A DNA stretch of 64,000 nucleotides from positions 71,639 to 135,638 of the forward strand of contig JACRLY010000062.1 of NCBI GenBank assembly GCA_016219595.1. Reading direction: 5' to 3'. How positions within the stretch are numbered: position 1 is the stretch's first letter; the number at the start of each line of letters is the position of its first letter. The DNA comes from Ignavibacteriota bacterium. GTDB lineage: Bacteria > Bacteroidota > Ignavibacteria > Kapaibacteriales > UBA2268. The translations under genes were made by a program, and so were the position numbers. The notes beneath the pieces were generated by a model. That model did no database searches and was not told the DNA's origin. It worked only from the letters and a program-made list of their open reading frames with translations. Positions 32,961 to 63,690 of this stretch are shown piece after piece.

Positions 32961-33200
32961 ATTTAACTATATATTTTATTCTTTAATATTTTCCTTTTTA
33001 ATAACCGTATCAGGAGTTACTACTGATACAACAAATATTTAATCCCTACGGGATATTTATTGTAGAGTTTATACATCATCTATAAACATATAATCACTAC
33101 GTGATAATTTAATATTCAATTCAAAGTACATTTCTTGTTTCAATTCAGCATTCAGAATTCAGCATTCAGAATTTTCAATTGTGAATTGTTAATTTTTTAT
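32961..33200. repeat. Intergenic repeat element, family A copy 1 (nuoK-nuoL spacer)
   Basis: It shares these modules with the copies at 34048-34319 and 37705-38069: tcaggagttact(a/c)ctga palindrome, atttaatccctacgggata, ...atataatcactac..., caaagtaca(a/t)ttct, ttcagcattcagaattcag. Confidence 0.7.
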
Positions 33201-37704: not shown

Positions 37705-38069
37705 ATTTCTTTTAAATTTTAAATTATAAATTTTGAATTAACTGTGTCAGGAGTTACTCCTGATACCTTTATTGTTATGTAGTGGTTGAAAATTTTCAAC
37801 CCCTACATTTTATTTTCTATTATCAATTCTCTGTGTTCTTTGTGAATTTCTTTGTGCTCTTTGTGGTTAAAAAATTCTTATCAAACACAATATATAATCC
37901 CAAGGGGATAATCATTGTAGTTGAGATACATCTTCTATAGACATATAATCACTACATTATAAATATTTTTATTCAAAGTACAATTCTCTTTTTAATGGAT
38001 TCTGAACAAATCCTTCGACTACGCTCAGGATGACATTGTTCAGAATGACATTTTAGCTATTAGTAATTA
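37705..38069. repeat. Intergenic repeat element, family A copy 3 (nuoB-nuoC spacer)
   Basis: It contains ctgtgtcaggagttactcctgatacc, gtagtggttgaaaattttcaacccctac, ctctgtgttctttgtgaatttctttgtgctctttgtgg, ataatcccaaggggataat, catataatcactac and caaagtacaattctct. Confidence 0.7.
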
Positions 38070-38612
38070 TTAATTAGTAATTAGTAATTCTTTTTGTTCT
38101 TCTTCAGCAATCCTTTTCCTTTTATTGAAAATCGCCTGCTTATTTATCTTTTCCTGCAATCTCATCATACCCTCTTCCAATGCTTCAGGTCTTGGAGGAC
38201 ATCCCGGAACATAAACATCCACAGGAATAATCCGGTCAACACCCTTCAGCACATGATAACCGTGCTCCCAGTAAGGACCGCCGGAATTGGCACATGATCC
38301 CATAGAAATAACATACTTAGGTTCAGCCATCTGTTCGTATAGCTTCTTGATTCTTTCCGCCATTTTGAAAGTAACAGTTCCGGAAATGATAATGAAGTCT
38401 GCCTGGCGTGGCGAGGTACGTGGAATGCATCCGAATCGCATAAAATCGAAATGCGATGCATTCACTGCCATAAATTCGATTGCACAGCAAGCCAATCCAA
38501 ACTGGAGGTACCAGTCCGATTTGCTTCTGCCCCAATTTAATATGTCTTCAACTTTTCCTAATATTATTCCGCCGCCGTAGTATGGATCGTCTAATTTATT
38601 CAATAAACCCAT
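38070..38612 (-). CDS. nuoB: NADH-quinone oxidoreductase subunit B
   Basis: 180 aa with the NuoB signatures [11 protein letters not shown]…[11 protein letters not shown]…GCPPRPEAL. Confidence 0.9.
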
Positions 38613-40812: not shown

Positions 40813-42843
40813 TCACTTATTAATAATCATTTTCTTAATTTCAACCGATTCATTAGTGGTTATGCGACTTAAGTAAACTCCGCTTGGTGCTTCGGTTCCC
40901 GCATCAGTCCTGCCATCCCAGGTTGCTGTATGTTTTCCAGCCTCAATCACACCCGAAAACAAATCCCTCACCAATTGTCCTTGTGTATCGTATATTTTAA
41001 TTGTAATATTCCCTGTTTTCGGCAAAGTATATTCAATGTTTGTTGTGTACTGAAACGGATTTGGATAATTCTGAGTTATTATTTTTTCTTTTAGAGGTTG
41101 TTGTGGTTCATCCTCAACATCAAGTATCACACCCCCTTCACGAAAGACAACAAGACCACCACCCAAGGTCCCTATCCATTTATTATCGCTTTCGTCTATA
41201 GCTATTGACCAAATCCAGTTAGAAAGCAAGCCGGAATTTTTTGTGTTGAAAGTAGTCCAATTAACATCATCAAATTTAGCCAATCCGCCAGAAGTCCCAA
41301 TCCATTTATTGCCTTTACTGTCTATTGTTATTGACTCAACAAGTCCAACAGGTAATCCTGAATTAAGTTTATTGTAAGTAGTCCAGTTAGTTCCGTCGAA
41401 TTTAGCAATACCACTTTCCCAAGTCCCTATCCATATATTACTACTATCATCTATTGCTATTGTCAAGACATCATTACCTGGCAAACCTGAATTTAATTTG
41501 TTGTAAGTAGTCCAGTTAGTCCCATCAAATTTTGTTAATCCACCTCCAGTTCCAATCCACTTATTGCCAGCTCTGTCTATTGTTATTGACCATACATCGT
41601 CAAAGGGTAAGTCGGAATTTGATCTGTTGTAAGTAGTCCAGTTAGTCCCATTAAATTTTGTTAATCCACCTCTAGTCCCAATCCATTTATTGCCGGAAAG
41701 GTCTATTGCCATTGACAAAACAAGGCTATCCGGTAAGCCGGAATTTGATTTGTTGTAAGTAGTCCAGTTTGTCTCGTCAAATTTTGCTAATCCATCTCCA
41801 GTCCCAATCCACATAAACCCGGTTTCTTCAATTACAATTGACCGGATACTGTTATTTGGTAAACCGGAGTTTGATTTGTTGTAAGTAGTCCAGCTAATCC
41901 CGTCAAATTTTGCCAAACCGCCAAAAGTCCCAATCCACTTTTTCCCGGATTCGTCTATTGCTATTGGCTGGACATTGTTATTAGGCAAACCGGAATTTGA
42001 TATGCTGTTAGTAGTCCAGTTAGTCCCGTCAAATTTTGCTAAGTCGCCTGAAGTCCCAATCCACATATTACCAGTTTCGTCTATTACTATTGACTGGACA
42101 ATGTTATTAGATAAGCCCGAATTTGATTTGTTGTAAGTAGTCCAGTTAGTCCCGTCAAATTTTGCTAAGCCGCTAGAAGTCCCAATCCATGTATTGCCTT
42201 TTAGGTCTGTTGTTATTGACCAAATATAGTTACCAAGCAAGCCTGAATTTGTAGTATTGTAAATAGTCCAGTTAGTCCCATCAAATTTTGCTAATCCACC
42301 TCCATAAGTCCCAATCCACGTATTGTCTGTTCCACCTATTGCTATTGAGCGGACATCGTTATCAGGCAAGCTCGAATTTGATTTGTTGTAAGTAGTCCAG
42401 TTAGTCTCGTCAAATTTTGCTAATCCATCTCCCCAAGTCCCAATCCATGTATTGTTAGTTCCATCTATTGCTATTGATCGTACATAGTTACCAGGCAAGC
42501 CCGAATTTGATTTGTTATAAGTTGTCCAGTTAGTCCCGTCAAATTTTGCAATACCACTGTCCCAAGTCCCAATCCACTTATTACCGCTTCCATCTATTGC
42601 TATTGTATGGACATTGTTATCAGGCAAGTCTGAATTTGAACTATTATAGTAAATTTTAGTTCCTGATATTTTATCTAGTTTTACAATAAACACAGTAGTT
42701 CCAACCCAGATGTAATCACCTTCTTCAGCTAAGGCTGTTATATTATCTCCATCAGTATAATTCACCCACTCTGGATTTTGCGATTTGACATTCGATATGA
42801 TTACAAAAAAAGCAAGAAATGCACTCAACAACACATGCTTCAT
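40813..42843 (-). CDS. Two-component-regulator-propeller-type repeat protein with a T9SS C-terminal sorting domain
   Basis: 676 aa. It has about 16 tandem ~25-aa units (NKWIGT.GGLAKFDGTNWTTYNKSNSGLP.N.V.SIAID). The C-terminal ~80 aa match the T9SS sorting pattern (…GVYLSRITTNESVEIKKMIINK). Confidence 0.7.
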   Translation of the reverse strand: MKHVLLSAFLAFFVIISNVKSQNPEWVNYTDGDNITALAEEGDYIWVGTTVFIVKLDKISGTKIYYNSSNSDLPDNNVHTIAIDGSGNKWIGTWDSGIAKFDGTNWTTYNKSNSGLPGNYVRSIAIDGTNNTWIGTWGDGLAKFDETNWTTYNKSNSSLPDNDVRSIAIGGTDNTWIGTYGGGLAKFDGTNWTIYNTTNSGLLGNYIWSITTDLKGNTWIGTSSGLAKFDGTNWTTYNKSNSGLSNNIVQSIVIDETGNMWIGTSGDLAKFDGTNWTTNSISNSGLPNNNVQPIAIDESGKKWIGTFGGLAKFDGISWTTYNKSNSGLPNNSIRSIVIEETGFMWIGTGDGLAKFDETNWTTYNKSNSGLPDSLVLSMAIDLSGNKWIGTRGGLTKFNGTNWTTYNRSNSDLPFDDVWSITIDRAGNKWIGTGGGLTKFDGTNWTTYNKLNSGLPGNDVLTIAIDDSSNIWIGTWESGIAKFDGTNWTTYNKLNSGLPVGLVESITIDSKGNKWIGTSGGLAKFDDVNWTTFNTKNSGLLSNWIWSIAIDESDNKWIGTLGGGLVVFREGGVILDVEDEPQQPLKEKIITQNYPNPFQYTTNIEYTLPKTGNITIKIYDTQGQLVRDLFSGVIEAGKHTATWDGRTDAGTEAPSGVYLSRITTNESVEIKKMIINK

Positions 42844-43194
42844 AGCTTCACCCTTTGAATGACAATAAATTTTTCGTAATAATTTATATTATTTAATTTC
42901 TTGCAACTTTATATAATATAATGACACATAAGATAGGAAAAAGTCTCAGAAATAATTAACAATTAGACTGTAGACTGTAAATTTTTTTAGTAATCTGTGA
43001 AATCCATTAATCCGTTTAATCTGTGGTTCAGAATTTTTTGACACATCATAATCGAAAAGGCCTCAGAAATAATTAACAATTCACAATTCATAATTAATAA
43101 TTTCAAAAATTTTTAACCGAAATTATTCATTGTTCATTATTCACTATTCATTATAAAAAATTACAAATGAAAAAGTAAATTGTATTGTGAATAT

Positions 43195-57162: not shown

Positions 57163-57186
57163 TCAATTAATAGATACTTTCACATA

Positions 57187-57223
57187 CTGCGTCAGGCTTA
57201 AGTGCTTGACGCAGTTTTTTTTT
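57187..57223 (+). terminator. Rho-independent terminator
   Basis: CTGCGTCAGG-cttaagtg-CTTGACGCAG followed by TTTTTTTTT. Confidence 0.8.
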
Positions 57224-58135
57224 ATTGTCTGAACTGTGATTTAGCTGATTAATCGGATTTCACAGATTTGAATTTTGGTTGTATGAAGCCAAAAAGGTGC
57301 AGATTTGTGCATCCGGAGCAGTTTTGACATCATTTTCATTTTTTGAATTTTAAATTCAACCTCACCGGAAAAGAAATTCTGAATTATGAATTCTGAATGC
57401 TGAATTGTGGTTATATTTAATTAATAATCCCTCTTGGTCTCCTTTTAATAAAGGGAGAAATTCCGTGAAACCCGGTAACGACTGGATTCAGCCCGACATT
57501 GTTTTGCAAAGAACGAGCGGGACAAAGTATAACCTCACCCTAAATCCCTCTCCGAAGGCGAGGGACTTTCCAAAACGGTATTCAAAGATATGGATCTGGG
57601 TGTGATATGTCAAGAAAACGGTTTTAAAATGGTTTTAAAATGGTTTTTAAAATATAGGCTGTAGACTGTAGGCTGTAGGGGGGAGAAGCAAATTTTAACA
57701 CAAAGAAGCACAAAGTGAAGACACGAAGGACGTAAGTTGTCTGAACCTGGATTAAACTGATTAATCGGATTTCGTTGATTTTTTTTATGAAGAAAGGCAA
57801 GTTTTAACACAAAGGACACGGAGGAAAGACACGAAGGACGCAGAGGAATTTTTAATTTTTAATTTAGAATTTTTAATGAATTTTTAATGTTTTAATTTTT
57901 AATTTATTTGGTGCACGCAGAGACGCGGAGCAGCGAAGGACGTAGAGGCACCACCCCTCGGTCCCCTCCTTAATTAAGGAGGGGAAGTTAAAGGGAGGTT
58001 TTTTTATAATACCCTCAACCCTGCCCTTCTCCCAGTGGGAGAAGGAAAAAAGGATATATGAAAATAATAATTGGGGAAAGTCTGTGCCGCGGATTAAAGA
58101 GAGAGTGGGAATGGAATGATAAATTAGAAATTTAT

Positions 58136-58762
58136 CTATAATTGAGAAACAAAACTTTCTGATAAATAATAAAAAGCTGTTTTATTTATGGGATTATTTT
58201 TTTTGGGATTAATTAAAATTTCAATACCAGTGTGTGAAACTGAAATAAGTCCAATGTTGTTTACTTTTAACAATTCTTTATCAACTCTATGGCTGTATTT
58301 TTCAGAAATAGCTAAAAAACTTTTATGCGAATAATGCTTATATCTTAATGCTTGATAAAACCCTTTTTTCCAGTCAAACAATTTAGCTTCTATGGAAAAA
58401 ATATCTTTCAAGCAAGGTAAATAACTTTTTTTTATAATAAATTTATCATCTGCTAAACCAACAATACATTCCAATTCTTTTAAAAATTGAATTAATATAT
58501 ATAACTTATCCTTTTTTAAATTGTATTTAGTTATCAATTCAGTAATATTAATTATTTGATTTTTCTTATTTAAATAATTTATTATATAAAACATCGATTC
58601 AAAATCATCAAGTGTTTTTCTTTTCTCAAATTTTTTAGTTGTAAAAACTAAATCTGCAATACCAATACCAGAAGAAAATTCTTCGAGAAAATATTTAGTA
58701 TTATAAATATCAGATAGATGCCTTCTTAATATAGGTATCATTTCCTTTTCATATCTAAACAT
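58136..58762 (-). CDS. Hypothetical protein, possible PD-(D/E)xK-like nuclease fold (GxxD … ExK … QxxxY)
   Basis: 208 aa. It contains GIGIADLVF, then later SIEAKLFDWKKGFYQALRYKHY (E-x-K followed by Q-x-x-x-Y, as in RecB/Cas4-type nucleases). The motif spacing is atypical, so the assignment is tentative. The start is 2 nt downstream of the kinase gene stop, so they are probably an operon. Confidence 0.4.
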   Translation of the reverse strand: MFRYEKEMIPILRRHLSDIYNTKYFLEEFSSGIGIADLVFTTKKFEKRKTLDDFESMFYIINYLNKKNQIINITELITKYNLKKDKLYILIQFLKELECIVGLADDKFIIKKSYLPCLKDIFSIEAKLFDWKKGFYQALRYKHYSHKSFLAISEKYSHRVDKELLKVNNIGLISVSHTGIEILINPKKNNPINKTAFYYLSESFVSQL

Positions 58763-58763
58763 A

Positions 58764-60830
58764 TTAAAATACCTTATTTAATTCGGTAAATACATCTTTC
58801 CAATTAATTAAATGTTGAAATTCATTAGCTCTAAAAATATTATGCAACCGTTTGTAATTAAAAATTGCTTTATCAATTCTATCAATAAAATATGATAAAC
58901 GTTCATTATGTGATAATGATTTTATCGTCTCAACCTCATTATGAATATTTTCTAAGAAATGAAGTTTGTTGTTAGGAGCATCAATCATATCAATATAATT
59001 TTTACCATTGCAATAATTACAATTACATGGCCCAAGAATATCCATTATTGCTTTCAATTTAATAGGATTCTTTTTTTCTATTGCAATAGTTCCAAGTAAT
59101 TGGGGGAAATAATAACGTTCATGCATAATATAAGCTTCATTTTCCTCTTTGTAAAGATCTTCATAAAAACTTTCAAATCTAGCTGCACCTGATGTATAAG
59201 CACTCACCCCTGCACAAAGTAAGCCTAAACCTAAAGAATTGAGTCTACCAGCAATAACAGGTTTTAAAGTACTTTTTTGTAGTTCCACTAAAGTTTTTAT
59301 ATAATGATAAAGTGTAGTTTTATTTGTATTATTATCAATACAATCAACATAAATAAAATAACCATCGCAATCAAATGCAGAAAACATATTGAGTAAATCT
59401 TTTTTATCTTTTTCATCAAGTAGACAATCAACATTCAAACAAATCCCAGCAAAAAGTAGCTTATTGTTATAATCACTAATTGATAATTTATAATCTATAC
59501 TCTCTTTTAGCAATTTAATATCAAGATCAAACCATTCTGCTACAGGATTTCTTCTTTGAGTGGCTGGAACATTTGTGTTGTGTATATAATGATATGGAGA
59601 GACTAAAATATCTGCTCCCAGTCTATATTGCTCATCAATAACTTTCTTAACATAATCTTTCTTCTTATCATTATCCTGTAAATAATCAGGTGATATTATA
59701 TGAAATTTAGGAGGAGCATAGGGTAACTCTTGTAATCCTTTAATATCTTGTTGAGCAGGATATGCTAACCGCATTGTAGCAGGGTCTATGATTCTTTCAA
59801 ATTGAGAGGATTGTATCAAATTTAATAATTTTCTTTGTTGTTTCTGAAAGTTTGCAGGAAATTCTACACTTATTTTTTTATTATATTTCTCAATAAAAGT
59901 TTGTAAAACACTCTTTTCATTCCATAATCTTAATAAATATTTTGGTGTTAAATCATATGTTTTTTCAACAAATTTTATTTCTTCAGATTTAATTGCATCA
60001 ATTATTAGTGAAGCTTTTGTAAATCTTTGATATGGATTTTTCTCTAAAAGTTTCAGAATAATATTTTCAATTTTATTATTAATCAATGGTAACCATCTTC
60101 TTGGTGGAATTGGGTTTCCATTTTTTATTTTATCATAAAGTTCAGGTAAAGAATTATATTCATAAGGAAGTTTTTTTGTAAGCATTTCGTACATAATTAC
60201 CCCGATGGTATATAAATCACTCCTTTTATCAATATGCTTACTATCTGTTATTTGTTCAGGGGACATGTAAATAGGAGAACCCATTACATCTCCTGTCGAG
60301 GTTATAGAGGTGTAATCTATAACTTTGGATATTCCATAATCAACAATTTTGATTTCTCCATTGTGTGCTACAATAATATTTTCTGGTTTTAAATCTCTAT
60401 GAATTATCCCTTTATCTTCATCATCACCTCTTATATTATGCAATGCATTTAATCCTTCTAATATTTTAACACTTATAACAATTGCTTGGCTTTCAATAAT
60501 TGAATTGTCAGTTATAAGTTTTTTTAATGTTTTACCTTGAGCATATTCCATTACTAGAAAAAAAGAAGGAACACCAAGTAAAGTTTCCATAAAATCATCA
60601 ACATATCGAATAAGATATGGATGATTCACAGATTTCATGATTTCAATTTCTCTTTTTATTCTGTTCTTTTCGCCTTTTTCACGAAATTCCATTAATACAT
60701 AGTCTTCTCTGAATATTTTTATAGCATATTCATTACCCGATTTTATTGCTTTATAAACAGAACCAAAGCCACCACTATCAATAAATTCTGTTATTTGATA
60801 ACCATTAATAACTGTACCAATAATATTCAT
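58764..60830 (-). CDS. Ser/Thr protein kinase fused to a ~400-aa uncharacterised C-terminal domain with a CxCxxC…H motif
   Basis: 688 aa. The N-terminal Hanks-type kinase has GGFGSVYKA (P-loop), YAIKIF (VAIK), IHRDLKPENIIV (catalytic loop), DYGIS (DFG) and YMSPE (APE). The C-terminal region has FDCDGYFIYVDCID and LGPCNCNYCNGKN…H…H, reminiscent of the zinc subdomain of TGT/DpdA-type enzymes. That similarity is not verified. Confidence 0.75.
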   Translation of the reverse strand: MNIIGTVINGYQITEFIDSGGFGSVYKAIKSGNEYAIKIFREDYVLMEFREKGEKNRIKREIEIMKSVNHPYLIRYVDDFMETLLGVPSFFLVMEYAQGKTLKKLITDNSIIESQAIVISVKILEGLNALHNIRGDDEDKGIIHRDLKPENIIVAHNGEIKIVDYGISKVIDYTSITSTGDVMGSPIYMSPEQITDSKHIDKRSDLYTIGVIMYEMLTKKLPYEYNSLPELYDKIKNGNPIPPRRWLPLINNKIENIILKLLEKNPYQRFTKASLIIDAIKSEEIKFVEKTYDLTPKYLLRLWNEKSVLQTFIEKYNKKISVEFPANFQKQQRKLLNLIQSSQFERIIDPATMRLAYPAQQDIKGLQELPYAPPKFHIISPDYLQDNDKKKDYVKKVIDEQYRLGADILVSPYHYIHNTNVPATQRRNPVAEWFDLDIKLLKESIDYKLSISDYNNKLLFAGICLNVDCLLDEKDKKDLLNMFSAFDCDGYFIYVDCIDNNTNKTTLYHYIKTLVELQKSTLKPVIAGRLNSLGLGLLCAGVSAYTSGAARFESFYEDLYKEENEAYIMHERYYFPQLLGTIAIEKKNPIKLKAIMDILGPCNCNYCNGKNYIDMIDAPNNKLHFLENIHNEVETIKSLSHNERLSYFIDRIDKAIFNYKRLHNIFRANEFQHLINWKDVFTELNKVF

Positions 60831-61098
60831 GATAAACTCTCTTATATATTATTATGATAATTTTTCATCGAACAATCCCTCCACTTCTTTTTCTCCTTCT
60901 AATCTTTTTGTACTGGATTTGAAAGTGAGCATTTCGCCGAGACCGGGGAGGCGGACGGAGCCAACGGGGTGCTGTTTGTTCAGTTCCTTGAGTACATCGA
61001 GGCAGTCGCCGAAATAGAGAGAGTTCATTTTTTTCCGAATTGATTATAAATAACAATGTAAAATAATGAATGGGAATGTGAAAGTCAAGGGAAAAATT

Positions 61099-61375
61099 GA
61101 AAAGTCGGAAGTTGGAAGTCGATAGTCGGAAGAGGGAAGGAGGAAGATAGATAATAGAAAATAGCAAATAGCAAATAGAAAATTGAAAAGCCGGAAGTTG
61201 GAAGTCGATAGTCGTTAGTCGGAAGAGGGAAGGAGGAAGATAGATAATAGAAAATAGTAAATAGCAAATAGAAAATAGAAAAGTCGGAAGTTGGAAGTCG
61301 ATAGTCGTTAGTCGATAGTCGGAAGAGGGAAGGAGGAAGATAGATAACAGAAAATAGCAAATAGAAAATTGAAAA
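61099..61375. repeat. Tandem repeat, three units of ~86-97 bp
   Basis: gaaaagtcggaagttggaagtcgatagtcg(ttagtcg)gaagagggaaggaggaagatagataatagaaaatagcaaatagaaaatt repeated three times. The ORFs 60865..61440 and 61085..61360 are translation artefacts of this repeat. Confidence 0.8.
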
Positions 61376-61390
61376 TTACCTTTATAATAT

Positions 61391-61760
61391 TTAAGAACAA
61401 GGATTAACGATTTATGATTTGAGAAGTCTATAACGTTCAACTCCTACGGAGTTGTGTTTGTTATCGGGGATTGTGTTTGTTACTAACGTTTAACTCCTAC
61501 GGAGTTATTCAAGGTTATATTTTATATTTGATGTGGAATTGAGGCTTTGGATTCCATTTCAAGAATGTAATGACAGTCAGGATTTAAGAAGAAGGATTAA
61601 CGATTTATGATTTGTGAAGTCTATAACGTTCAACTCCTACGGAGTTGTGTTTGTTATCGGGGATTGTGTTTGTTACAAACGTTTAACTCCTACGGAGTTA
61701 TTTCAAGGTTATATTTTATATTTGATGTGGGATTGAGGCTTTGGATTCCATTTCAAGAAT
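61391..61760. repeat. Direct tandem duplication of a ~185-bp unit containing the AACTCC-tac-GGAGTT hairpin twice
   Basis: Copy 1 (61391-61575) and copy 2 (61577-61760) are over 95% identical (…aggattaacgatttatgattt…aacgttcaactcctacggagttgtgtttgtta…aacgtttaactcctacggagtt…ggattccatttcaagaatg…). Confidence 0.8.
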
Positions 61761-62085
61761 GGAATGACAGAGTAATTACGAATTAAATAACTTCGCCTTC
61801 AATATATCCCTGATTTCTGCAAAATGCATTTAAACTTAATACAGGAGAATGAATAATAATCGGAATTATGAATATTATAATTAGTTTATTTTAATAATAA
61901 TTATAAAGACAGATTATAATATTTTGTTTTTTAATTTAAAATGACTATATTAACTTATATAAAAGGTTTGAATAGTTTGACCAACTTAAATGGTAAAATA
62001 TATATTAGGTGTTGGAAGTTGAAATTAAACTCAATTCAATAATATATTTAATAATTTTTTCACCATTTATTTAACGAGGTGCTAT

Positions 62086-63690
62086 ATGAAAAACTTTTTT
62101 AGAATCTTAGTTATTCTACTTCTATTAACTGCTTATACCACAAAAGCCGAAAATTTTGACGAAACAAGATTTGGCTTGGGAGCAGGAGCAAGCGTCGGAA
62201 TCAATGAATCAAAAGACAGACCATTCAATCTTTCATTCGGTGCACTTTTCAGGCAGCCGTTCAATGAAATGTTTGCCGGCGAGTTCAGCATTGGTTATGT
62301 TCCGCTCAGCGGAGAAACTTATGTGACAAGCGGTCAGGGTAAATATGAGACAAACCTGATTCCTATTGATTTAAAATTACTGTTTTCCCCAATAAGAGCA
62401 AAAAGCTGGTATCCTTATCTCCTGGGTGGTTTTGGTGTTTTCAACTATGATGCGAAAACACCATCTCCTGTGGCAGATGCACAGGCAAAAGATAAGGGAT
62501 GGGCGCCATACTTCTGTTTGGGAGCCGGAATTGAAGCGGCACTTTCGAGTAACTTCTCACTCGATTTTCATGCATCAGGAAATCGCAGTTTTACTGATGA
62601 TATTAATGGTGAGTATGACAATCCAAGTATTTATGACGGATACTGGAATTTGACACTATCAATTATTTATACTCCATGGGGTGTCGATGGTGATTCAGAT
62701 GGTGATGGTTTACTTGATTCATTTGAAGACCAGATTGGCACTAATCCGGATAATCCCGACACAGACGGTGACGGTCTCAAAGACGGTGCAGAATATAATA
62801 AATATAAAACAAATCCCATGGTTCCCGACACAGACGGTGACGGCTTAAAAGATGGTGCAGAAGTAGATGATTACAATACCGACCCACTGAAAGCTGACAC
62901 GGACGGTGACGGTTTGAAGGACGGAGAAGAGGTAATGACCTACAAGACAGATCCCAATAAAGCAGATACAGACGGTGACGGACTTAAAGACGGAGAAGAA
63001 GTATTAACTTACAAGACAGACCCGCTGAAGGCTGACACTGACGGTGACGGACTTAATGATGGTGATGAGGTTTTGAAGCACAGGACAGACCCATTAAAGA
63101 TGGACACTGATGGCGATGACTTGAACGATGGAGCTGAAGTTACCAGGCACAAGACTGATCCGACTAAGATTGATACAGACGGAGACGGTCTGAAAGACGG
63201 CGAGGAAGTAACAAAATACAAGACAAATCCAACCATGAAGGACACTGATAAAGGTGGAGTTGACGACGGAACCGAAGTTGCCAAAAAGCAAAATCCTCTC
63301 GATGGAACAGATGATTATGGTAAGAAGACTCTCGGTCCCCAGGAAATTGGTGCAAAAATTGTTCTTGAAGGAGTTCTTTTCGAGACCGGAAAATCCAAAA
63401 TTACACCGGCATCTGATTCGATTTTAATTCAGGCTTACGAAACTTTGGTTGCTTATCCGAATATGGAAGTTTTGATTACCGGTCATACCGATAATGTAGG
63501 CAAGAGAGATAAAAATATTAAGTTATCTCAGGACAGGGCTGATGCCGTGAAAACATGGCTTGTGAACAGAGGTATTGCTTCATCAAGAATGACGACAAAA
63601 GGTTATGGTCCGGATAAACCGATAACCCTGAATGATACTCCTGAAAACAAGCAGAAGAACAGAAGAATTGAGTTTGAGAGAACCAAATAG
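62086..63690 (+). CDS. OmpA-family outer-membrane protein with an N-terminal beta-barrel, thrombospondin type-3 (TSP3) Ca-binding repeats and a C-terminal OmpA domain
   Basis: 534 aa. It has a signal peptide and about 11 DTDGDGLKDGEE repeats. The OmpA-like C-terminus has NMEVLITGHTDNVGKRDKNIKLSQDRADAVKTWL…GYGPDKPI…NRRIEF. Confidence 0.85.
   Translation: MKNFFRILVILLLLTAYTTKAENFDETRFGLGAGASVGINESKDRPFNLSFGALFRQPFNEMFAGEFSIGYVPLSGETYVTSGQGKYETNLIPIDLKLLFSPIRAKSWYPYLLGGFGVFNYDAKTPSPVADAQAKDKGWAPYFCLGAGIEAALSSNFSLDFHASGNRSFTDDINGEYDNPSIYDGYWNLTLSIIYTPWGVDGDSDGDGLLDSFEDQIGTNPDNPDTDGDGLKDGAEYNKYKTNPMVPDTDGDGLKDGAEVDDYNTDPLKADTDGDGLKDGEEVMTYKTDPNKADTDGDGLKDGEEVLTYKTDPLKADTDGDGLNDGDEVLKHRTDPLKMDTDGDDLNDGAEVTRHKTDPTKIDTDGDGLKDGEEVTKYKTNPTMKDTDKGGVDDGTEVAKKQNPLDGTDDYGKKTLGPQEIGAKIVLEGVLFETGKSKITPASDSILIQAYETLVAYPNMEVLITGHTDNVGKRDKNIKLSQDRADAVKTWLVNRGIASSRMTTKGYGPDKPITLNDTPENKQKNRRIEFERTK

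Follow-up and report, generated by a model that had tools for sequence, protein, structure and literature searches.

A Hanks-type serine/threonine kinase fused to a domain with the fold of tRNA-guanine transglycosylase (TGT), together with a PD-(D/E)xK nuclease-fold protein, makes up a cassette that is real and horizontally mobile, and whose two genes are strictly linked. The folds, the motifs, the gene linkage, the patchy spread and the insertion of the pair into restriction-modification (R-M) operons and mobile elements are shown by the analysis. With somewhat better than even confidence, and without experimental evidence, we favor the view that the pair is a self-contained, mobile anti-phage or anti-plasmid conflict cassette that has not been described. 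The defence role is inferred, as are the status of the barrel as sensor or enzyme, the substrate of the nuclease and the role of the kinase.

The cassette was found in a stretch of 64,000 nucleotides from an Ignavibacteriota bacterium, referred to here as the window (Table 1). The stop codon of gene 1 and the ATG of gene 2 are 1 base apart. Gene 1 is a 100% match to a protein from an NCBI MAG of Ignavibacteriae, where it is labeled 'serine/threonine protein kinase', and its length fits the family range of 679-691 aa. Both genes are strongly AT-rich, with a GC content of 27.4% for gene 1 and 22.2% for gene 2 versus 36% for the whole window, which agrees with a possible foreign origin.

An earlier note, written without database searches, had described two minus-strand reading frames with a set of quoted motifs, a complete Hanks-type kinase, and a candidate undescribed, defence-like system. 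Both reading frames lie where the note placed them, every quoted motif is present in its place in genes 1 and 2, and the kinase is confirmed by its Pfam match and full set of motifs. The candidate system is supported by context in other genomes, with the defence role itself an inference. The note had also named three outcomes that would refute it, and none came about: the pair is syntenic elsewhere wherever this can be checked, the C-terminal domain of gene 1 does not fall in a housekeeping family lacking a link to TGT or defence, and the 208-aa protein does have a nuclease fold.

Table 1. Features of the cassette and its flanks (window positions)
Feature	Position	Strand	Description
Gene 1	58764..60830	-	688 aa; Hanks Ser/Thr kinase fused to TGT-fold domain
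Gene 2	58136..58762	-	208 aa; PD-(D/E)xK nuclease-fold protein, winged-helix insert at about residues 54-110
Kinase domain, gene 1	60009..60800	-	residues 11-274; Pfam PF00069, E 9e-51
TGT-like (β/α)8 barrel with C-terminal zinc-binding and helical subdomain, gene 1	58767..59948	-	residues ~295-688
Putative Zn site, gene 1	58959..59027	-	C602-x-C604-x-x-C607 … H624
IIDPAT motif, gene 1	59775..59792	-	D349 (domain D65); at the C-terminus of predicted strand β3
Repeat-rich non-coding spacer downstream of gene 2	57163..58135		context only, outside the system
Non-coding spacer upstream of gene 1	60831..62085		93-nt tandem array and 193-nt duplication; context only, outside the system

The two genes are strictly linked. 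Searching with the partner (the gene 2 homologue) alone found 39 genome loci, and in all 36 that have upstream DNA the fusion lies directly upstream of the partner on the same strand. Their distribution is patchy, covering many lineages of bacteria and a single archaeal MAG, at 40-76% identity. Kinase-less TGT-like relatives (20-41% identity) kept a partner homologue in 5 of 5 cases examined, where it lies upstream, downstream or convergent. A Priestia megaterium plasmid carries the fusion with a convergent partner, and a decayed copy of the cassette occurs at locus L046. The fused kinase is found in one large branch of the TGT-like family, to which the window copy belongs. No third gene is conserved beside the pair among the 129 neighboring proteins scanned in 25 loci. 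A description of the fusion was not found in Pfam, NCBIfam, the PADLOC models or the literature searched, and within that scope the earlier statement that it is not a described family held. PADLOC has no models for the TGT-like domain or the nuclease partner.

It is very unlikely that gene 1 encodes an ordinary signaling kinase with a sensor domain that happens to neighbor an unrelated gene and has no role in conflict. Databases do label the protein plainly as a serine/threonine kinase, and some loci are situated amid metabolic genes. This explanation, however, is opposed by the strict linkage to a nuclease-fold gene across many lineages and gene orders, as well as by the sporadic spread, the foreign GC content, and the siting on mobile elements and in R-M operons.

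The N-terminal domain of gene 1 is a Hanks-type Ser/Thr kinase, whose activity is inferred from sequence alone. It matches PF00069 with 173.2 bits against a cut-off of 31.7, and its motifs, GGFGSVYKA (residues 20-28), AIK (36-38, with Lys38), HRDLKPEN (144-151), DYG (164-166) and SPE (190-192), are nearly invariant across 56 homologues. The PADLOC models that the kinase domain matches best are those of the defence kinases PD-T4-6 and mad6 (217-221 bits), though these matches, which are confined to that domain, may reflect nothing more than generic Hanks-kinase similarity. Gene 1 does not reach the NCBIfam cut-offs for MAD6 (126 versus 460) or PglW (50 versus 990).

Two structure-comparison methods and profile-profile alignment agree on a TGT fold for the C-terminal domain of gene 1, which combines a (β/α)8 barrel of the TGT type with an insertion subdomain at its C-terminus. 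There is no PF01702 match, Pfam and NCBIfam are blank for residues 285-688 and for 9 stand-alone relatives, and ArcTGT is the sole match of the family profile in the PDB (E 0.052). A putative structural zinc site, CxCxxC…H, is conserved in the family. Its four residues are invariant in 56 fusions and are retained in 49, 40, 49 and 51 of 52 sequences of the wider family, and the segment, with CNCNYC at residues 602-607, aligns with CSCPVC…LH of ArcTGT (E 0.052) and CDCYTC of the E. coli enzyme. This conservation and alignment uphold the earlier reading of CNCNYC…H as a TGT-like zinc-binding subdomain; metal binding itself is inferred from sequence alone. The companion proposal, that FDCDG (residues 486-490) corresponds to the 'MFDC' catalytic segment of TGT, failed, and FDCDG was rejected as the nucleophile segment since the alignment places it at the β6 "FDGYAV" motif.

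Assignment of catalytic residues relied on strand register in an AlphaFold model and an hhalign alignment at 51% probability, without coordinate superposition. An aspartate is not at the expected place at the end of β8, the position of the canonical nucleophile (Zm D280, Ec D264, DpdA D256). In the model, β8 is AYTS and the next residue G (domain residues 260-264); across the family, position 262 is S, I, A, T or D and position 263 is S or A, and the hhalign register sets Y272 opposite TGT D264. Confidence in this absence is moderate, again in the lack of a superposition. A conserved acidic position, E269 of the domain, where 46 of 52 sequences have E or D, falls in a loop modeled with low confidence beyond β8 and might still take part in catalysis. 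For the aspartate at the end of β4, the canonical base-recognizing residue (Zm D156, Ec D143, DpdA D130), no acidic residue follows the strand in GADILVSPYHY. Two hhalign runs aligned this segment with GSDIVMIFDECTPY, the FDE segment being deleted or opposite H-Y-I; in stand-alone relatives, E or D is often found two to three residues past the β4 position. The canonical general acid/base is the aspartate at the end of β3 (Zm D102, Ec D89, DpdA D95). D349 of gene 1 ends a strand predicted at domain residues 60-65, and the IIDPAT motif is well kept (of 52 sequences, 46 have the D, 49 the P and 44 the T). On the model's prediction, D349 may be the sole conserved candidate counterpart of a TGT catalytic aspartate. 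Its pairing with D89/D102 is inferred from strand register, and a low-confidence hhalign alignment gives a different register.

These observations bear on a DpdA-like modification-restriction pair, in which the barrel would swap a base of host DNA (for instance, putting in a 7-deazaguanine from the queuosine pathway), the PD-(D/E)xK partner would restrict unmodified DNA, and the kinase would set the balance. Such chemistry is doubtful for the gene 1 barrel because the β4 and β8 positions lack aspartate: the former falls within ILVSPYHY, and the latter is occupied by T/S-S-G, or by Y272 if the hhalign register is followed. The missing PF01702 match counts against this alternative as well, as does the absence of a ParB-like DpdB, preQ0-synthesis genes or any other conserved third gene beside the pair. 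The same 129 proteins from 25 loci included no dpdB, dpdC or preQ0 synthesis genes, and the sole ParB near the pair, on one ICE-like element, serves plasmid partition. We consider a DpdA-like pair unlikely.

The gene 2 protein has a PD-(D/E)xK nuclease fold, with the restriction-endonuclease-like αβββαβ core and a conserved catalytic signature. All 54 homologues share D37, at the end of GIAD (residues 34-37), E125-A-K127, E28, and Q137/Y141, both within QALRY (137-141). These residues are kept in relatives at 28-29% identity. Nuclease activity is inferred. The suggested PD-(D/E)xK resemblance was borne out by the fold and the invariant D…ExK, whereas the more specific RecB/Cas4-type assignment was not, the closest matches being SPO1766, PaqCI and NucS, and also SdaI.

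Support for a defence role comes from R-M operons and mobile elements in other genomes. The pair is inserted in type I R-M operons as hsdM–pair–ORF161–hsdS–hsdR (L033, L034, L039, L041-43) and in type III operons as mod–pair–res (L030, L049, L050); the genes are 1-11 nt apart or overlap by 4 nt. One ICE-like element with the pair also carries a serine recombinase, MobA, ParAB and PemK, and one copy lies in a prophage-like region beside lysis genes and a recombinase. Neighbors elsewhere include HEPN, a BrxC/D-like ATPase, Lhr helicase, JetA (DUF3375), PRTase-CE/NADAR, Abi_C, RelA_SpoT, AbiEi and mREase_IV, and distant relatives are linked to genes for PIN and ASCH domains. The pair was not found in phage genomes. 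Most copies, that of the window included, do not adjoin R-M genes, and enrichment in defence islands is not statistically established because the neighbors at several loci are ordinary metabolic genes.

In type I and type III operons the pair lies between the methylase gene and the specificity or restriction gene, a placement compatible with a tRNA-directed abortive-infection guard of R-M akin to PrrC/RloC. The barrel would bind tRNA anticodon loops as TGT does, inactivation of R-M by a phage would lead to cleavage or disabling of tRNA, and the kinase would stop host functions. PrrC has such a placement within R-M in EcoprrI, and the ties of relatives to PIN and ASCH, which are RNA-associated domains, point the same way. 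The guard remains unlikely, however, given the many copies away from R-M genes and given that winged-helix PD-(D/E)xK nucleases are usually DNases, the closest here being PaqCI, NucS and SdaI.

A toxin-antitoxin or addiction module is likewise improbable. Here the nuclease would be a toxin restrained by the large TGT-like protein, the module would mainly stabilize the mobile elements and R-M operons in which it is carried, and phage defence would arise only via abortive infection. In its favor are the tightly coupled or overlapping genes, carriage on a plasmid and on the ICE-like element beside PemK, the addition of PIN-domain genes (typical toxins) in distant relatives, and the existence of decayed copies such as L046. 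Against it, an 'antitoxin' of 400-690 aa that has a conserved zinc site as well as a kinase that looks active would be atypical, the variable and sometimes convergent gene order is unusual for autoregulated type II operons, and the partner has its own winged helix.

The inference of defence does not rest on the flanking repeats. The earlier note had regarded the repeats on either side as bracketing the operon as an island, and the repeats are real. On the gene 1 side (downstream of the operon start as the window is numbered) are a 93-nt tandem repeat of 2.9 copies (61102-61377) and two direct 193-nt copies of 97-98% identity (61389-61770), while 57224-58135 has dispersed repeats of 15-45 nt and a perfect 22-nt palindrome (57963-57984). 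Repeat motifs searched for gave 4 copies versus 0.04 expected and 2 versus 0.05 expected in shuffled sequence. The bracketing failed: the left and right flanks have no terminal direct or inverted repeat in common that would mark the ends of an element, and the only matches between them are AT-rich and of low complexity. No reading frame in the flanks has any family match, and heptamer arrays of the same type recur in the window at 33142, 38059 and 43122. Since homologous cassettes in other genomes directly adjoin unrelated genes, the spacer downstream of gene 2 is placed outside the system, and the flanking repeats are not part of it. The link to defence that the note drew from a repeat-flanked island has its support in R-M operons and mobile elements of other genomes rather than in repeats.

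In the conflict cassette that we favor, the core would be the zinc-binding TGT-fold protein and the winged-helix PD-(D/E)xK nuclease. The barrel keeps the fold and zinc subdomain by which TGT, DpdA and Cap10 hold a flipped guanine or 7-deazaguanine-type base, and the loss of the canonical β4 and β8 aspartates is the reason for viewing it as probably a nucleic-acid or base sensor, or a divergent enzyme, and not a standard transglycosylase. On meeting an invader-specific feature the barrel would license the partner nuclease, which would cut DNA. The fused kinase would add a signaling or regulatory layer, through autophosphorylation or phosphorylation of the partner, host proteins or phage proteins. 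A bolder reading, which we regard as unlikely, is that a TGT-fold tRNA-modification enzyme has been turned into an immune receptor. Its altered barrel would read a flipped invader-specific base, such as the 7-deazaguanine derivatives that phages use against restriction, and would switch on the dedicated nuclease and a phosphorylation response via the fused kinase, serving inside R-M operons as a back-up layer that catches phages evading by base modification.

The cassette differs from each known system with which it was compared. PD-T4-6, Stk2, MADS MAD6 and PglW lack a TGT-like domain and a nuclease partner of the cassette type. Relative to TGT (PF01702) and its non-catalytic paralogue QTRT2, the gene 1 domain has only 13% identity, a disordered loop of 20 residues following β8, and a Cys-to-His spacing of 17 residues versus 26 in TGT, besides lacking the β4 and β8 aspartates; it is kinase-fused, nuclease-linked and sporadic, whereas TGT is universal. 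DpdA, the DNA-guanine transglycosylase of the Dpd R-M system, retains all three catalytic aspartates; its partners are the ParB-like ATPase DpdB, DpdC and a large dpdD-K restriction cluster, and the cassette has none of these beside it. Cap10 of type IV CBASS keeps a catalytic D248/H226 pair and requires the QueC-like Cap9 and a CD-NTase, neither of which is among the cassette neighbors examined. The PrrC anticodon nuclease sits in the type Ic EcoprrI locus, and the shared logic is that of an extra module co-transcribed between R-M subunit genes, although the proteins are unrelated and most cassettes are not beside R-M genes. The family, often joined to a eukaryote-like kinase, occurs widely in Bacteroidota and in many further lineages but goes unrecognized by Pfam, NCBIfam and PADLOC. 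It offers a compact two-gene system for asking how a base-flipping barrel without its canonical nucleophile is used, what Hanks kinases add to bacterial immunity, and why R-M operons of types I and III have extra modules nested in them. If the barrel does recognize modified bases, it could become a tool for detecting them. DpdA and Cap10 are recent examples of TGT-fold proteins in immunity, and the cassette family would, if our reading is correct, be a third and architecturally distinct recruitment of this fold.

Both open reading frames that the earlier note had called from sequence alone were confirmed in position, together with all of the motifs it had quoted in them. The two genes are separated by a single base and have GC contents of 27.4% (gene 1, the kinase fusion) and 22.2% (gene 2, its partner), compared with 36% across the whole window. 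Gene 1 of this Ignavibacteriae MAG window is identical to an NCBI entry labelled "serine/threonine protein kinase", and gene 2 is identical to one labelled "hypothetical protein". Within the window the cassette lies next to a gene for a large secreted protein and one for an OmpA-like protein, the latter recognized by eye. The 534-aa ORF contains 69-nt repeats encoding DTDGDGLKDGEE-type (thrombospondin type 3-like) units, and its C-terminal stretch appears OmpA-like, a likeness judged by eye only without a family search. A 676-aa ORF elsewhere in the window also carries a coding tandem repeat.

Coordinates of the cassette and of repeats and ORFs in the window
Feature	Coordinates	Strand	Description
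Gene 1	58764..60830	-	ORF, 688 aa
Gene 2	58136..58762	-	ORF, 208 aa
Dispersed repeats	57224-58135		15-45 nt, plus perfect 22-nt palindrome
93-nt tandem repeat	61102-61377		2.9 copies, made of heptamers AAGTCGG and GAAAATA
Two 193-nt direct copies	61389-61770		97-98% identity
Short heptamer tandem arrays	33142-33173, 38059-38089, 43122-43154, 57375-57406
58-aa ORF	60852-61028	-
534-aa ORF	62086-63690
676-aa ORF	40813-42843	-
Coding tandem repeat in 676-aa ORF	41159-42639		period 126/252/378 nt, ~11.7 copies, 75% identity

Residues 11-274 of gene 1 form a Hanks-type kinase domain (Pfam PF00069, E 9e-51, 173 bits; cut-off 31.7). The domain is likely to be catalytically competent because the G-loop, the AIK lysine, HRDLKPEN, DYG and SPE are nearly invariant in 56 homologues, with activity itself being inferred from these motifs. 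In PADLOC the protein scores best against two defence kinases, mad6 and PD-T4-6 (217-221 bits), with matches that extend over the kinase domain only, and gene 1 falls far below the curated NCBIfam cut-offs for both MAD6 and PglW.

The C-terminal domain of gene 1 (residues ~285-688) and nine stand-alone relatives returned nothing meaningful in Pfam, NCBIfam, PADLOC or PDB-sequence searches, and the same was true of the partner. A confident AlphaFold2 model of the domain built from 56 sequences (pLDDT 88, pTM 0.88) predicts eight β/α units, after which come a β-hairpin and a helical subdomain, and an independent comparison with Foldseek placed ~50 tRNA-guanine transglycosylase (TGT) entries on top (E ~3e-6, TM 0.5-0.65). 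Alignment of 52 diverse family members with a 7-sequence TGT alignment by hhalign covered 317 columns (E 1.5e-4, probability 51%), within which the motifs TPxF, GxDI(V/L), LFG/A-I, DGY, KP and CxCxxC are colinear. Against PDB sequences, the 52-member profile matched best to the zinc region of ArcTGT (E 0.052). The fusions show no variation in the zinc signature, C602-x-C604-x-x-C607…H624, which is present in 40-51 of the 52 members of the wide family. The TGT-like CxCxxC…H cluster proposed in the earlier note thus held, being both conserved and aligned with TGT.

The canonical catalytic machinery of TGT has probably not been kept in this domain, a conclusion that rests on residue assignments of moderate confidence made without model coordinates. 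The β4 segment reads GADILVSPYHY and has no acidic residue, and β8 ends in AYTS-G in the model, with hhalign pairing Y272 with D264, the nucleophile of the E. coli enzyme. Only D349 (IIDPAT, end of β3) is conserved among the canonical aspartate positions (46/52), and it could be the counterpart of the general acid/base aspartate, as inferred from a strand register of moderate confidence. E553, which is glutamate or aspartate in 46/52 members and is located past β8 in a loop modelled with low confidence, might substitute for the missing catalytic aspartate. FDCDG, which had been likened earlier to the 'MFDC' nucleophile segment, aligns instead with the β6 "FDGYAV" motif of TGT, and the earlier comparison failed (again with moderate confidence and without coordinates). 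The missing aspartates count against a rival explanation, that the genes form a DpdA-like modify-and-restrict pair, as does the lack of DpdB and of preQ0 genes, and this rival is considered unlikely.

In gene 2, E28, D37 (GIAD), E125-A-K127, Q137, R140 and Y141 are invariant in 54 partner homologues and constitute the classic PD-(D/E)xK constellation, which upholds the PD-(D/E)xK side of the weak resemblance pointed out previously; nuclease activity itself is inferred. The partner has 198 homologues, and the C-terminal domain has 374 in a 90%-clustered database, nearly all of which are kinase fusions of 679-691 aa. A HMMER scan of 1.84 billion representatives yielded 140 clusters. Of these, 53 are fragments; the full-length ones divide into 33 kinase fusions and 54 stand-alone barrels (370-460 aa). 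A search of a large protein database with the profile of alignment A3 returned only close fusions again. Genome contigs were scanned with the partner alignment (A2), since A3 was too divergent. Linkage was surveyed in one genome per species, searched with the partner alone, and 39 loci were found in Bacteroidota, Chlorobiota, Patescibacteria, Planctomycetota, Bacillota, Pseudomonadota, Calditrichota, Nitrospirota, Aminicenantes, Desulfuromonadaceae, Aerophobetes and one archaeal MAG. The kinase-TGT-like gene lies immediately upstream of the partner on the same strand in 36/36 loci with upstream DNA, and the co-occurrence that the earlier note had left to be checked is therefore complete in these loci. 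The fusion gene is split by frameshifts in 3 of the 36 loci and is decayed in Paraflavitalea. In the decayed cassette (Paraflavitalea speifideaquila chromosome, L046, 6950-9631) all three components, kinase, barrel and partner, are in fragments.

Architecture varies among the relatives. The kinase-less protein P0407, which is 41% identical to the window domain, keeps a vestige of the kinase C-lobe and has its partner downstream, and the partner of kinase-less P0283 is upstream and overlapping. Convergent partners accompany kinase-less P0298, which has a barrel–PIN arrangement, and a kinase fusion on a Priestia megaterium plasmid. Two further proteins are distant stand-alone barrels: P0270 (L052:2455-4967) belongs to a partner–barrel–DUF3800 operon, and P0353 (L064:1682-4250) has a 132-aa partner without the winged helix, with PIN upstream and ASCH downstream. 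These PIN/ASCH and DUF3800 neighbours hint at modular accessory effectors or readers. Since linkage to the partner outlasts divergence to 20-25% sequence identity as well as changes in order and orientation, the barrel and partner likely form a functional two-protein core to which the kinase is an accessory domain. Set beside this linkage, the rival reading of gene 1 as a plain signalling kinase is very unlikely. An apparent 'split' kinase gene in L063 (4166-4984, 17 nt upstream of barrel P0304) has an ORF that ends in a scaffold N run; it is likely a fusion broken by the scaffold gap rather than a true split, and L063/P0304 was left out of the counts.

Both flanks of the cassette are rich in repeats and lack credible genes, as had been noted earlier, but the accompanying view of the repeats as brackets of an island failed. 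The flanking repeats are local intergenic clutter outside the system, because comparison of the left and right flanks revealed no terminal repeats in common, similar heptamer arrays turn up in other parts of the window, and homologous cassettes in other genomes directly abut unrelated genes. The 1-kb bin holding the 93-nt tandem repeat (61001-62000) has a GC skew of +0.40, and a spurious 191-aa ORF crosses the repeat. Each 193-nt copy has two CAACTCCTACGGAGTTG hairpins and then T-rich tails resembling terminators, and the copies are possibly a small mobile or terminator element that has been duplicated; the flanks, these copies included, matched no Rfam family. The heptamer AATTCAG (33142) is the in-register reverse complement of AATTCTG (57375), and the scattered arrays might represent a genome-wide intergenic heptamer repeat family. 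A sigma-70 promoter scan gave no usable signal in the AT-rich DNA here. The 58-aa ORF directly upstream of the kinase gene has a start, MNSLYFGDCLDVLKEL, that recalls the N-termini of N4/N6 DNA methyltransferases. Its interpretation as a methyltransferase stump from a decayed mod–pair–res operon was supported neither by Pfam or PADLOC nor by tblastn with Mod/HsdM proteins of related loci or against plasmids.

In other genomes the cassette is nested inside R-M operons, where it is separated from adjoining genes by 1-11 nt or overlaps them by 4 nt, in the order hsdM–pair–ORF161–hsdS–hsdR in type I systems (L033, L034, L039, L041-43) and mod–pair–res in type III systems (L030, L049, L050). A rival explanation bearing on this nesting, though an unlikely one, is that the cassette guards R-M systems in the manner of PrrC and is directed at tRNA. 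The 161-aa ORF between the partner gene and hsdS is conserved in L033, L039 and L041-L043 (e.g. L039:6699-7184), overlaps both neighbours by 4 nt and has no Pfam match. Elsewhere the cassette directly follows a serine recombinase, on an ICE-like element that also carries MobA, ParAB, WYL and PemK, is flanked by a lysis cassette on one side and a recombinase on the other, or adjoins an integrase and a Mod/Res pair. Copies also have as neighbours HEPN, a BrxC/D-like ATPase, an Lhr-type helicase and JetA; PRTase-CE/NADAR with an MNT-HEPN pair; or RelA_SpoT and Abi_C. When 129 neighbouring proteins from 25 loci were pooled and scanned, no conserved third gene emerged; housekeeping genes were mixed with scattered defence/TA families (RhuM, HEPN/Polβ, AbiEi, mREase_IV and others). 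Alternatively, the cassette could itself be a toxin-antitoxin or addiction module, which is unlikely. No relatives were found in IMG/VR and the GenBank phage collection at the sensitivity used.

What is shown comprises the folds (as predicted by model), motifs, linkage, mobility and nesting in R-M operons. The explanation favoured here, with moderate confidence and by inference, is that the cassette is a defence or conflict system. The TGT-derived barrel would respond to some feature of nucleic acids, either as a sensor or as a divergent enzyme, the PD-(D/E)xK-winged-helix protein would be a DNA-cutting effector, and the kinase would add regulation or a second output. The TGT relatives of the barrel hold a flipped guanine or 7-deazaguanine.

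Neither a kinase-TGT-like fusion nor a TGT-like/REase-fold pair is described in the literature searched, and DefensePredictor makes no mention of such a system; the earlier statement that the fusion is not a described family stands to that extent, with absence unproven and existence elsewhere not excluded. Three candidates were set aside: CapK/CapS (PMC13373217) is an unrelated anti-sigma-type kinase system, the GNAT/TGT modules of BREX-related 'BRC' systems (PMC12839542) differ in context, and the HhH glycosylases acting against deazaguanine phages (bioRxiv 2025.10.29.685425) differ in fold. The C-terminal domain has its fold in common with TGT, DpdA and Cap10, but unlike PF01702-type enzymes it fails both the sequence-profile and the catalytic-Asp tests of membership, and the companion genes of Dpd and of type IV CBASS are absent around the pair. 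The pair is rated a candidate new defence system, its defence role being inferred, that draws on a branch of the TGT fold both new and without annotation, and in its way of working it would resemble other nuclease-effector defence cassettes.
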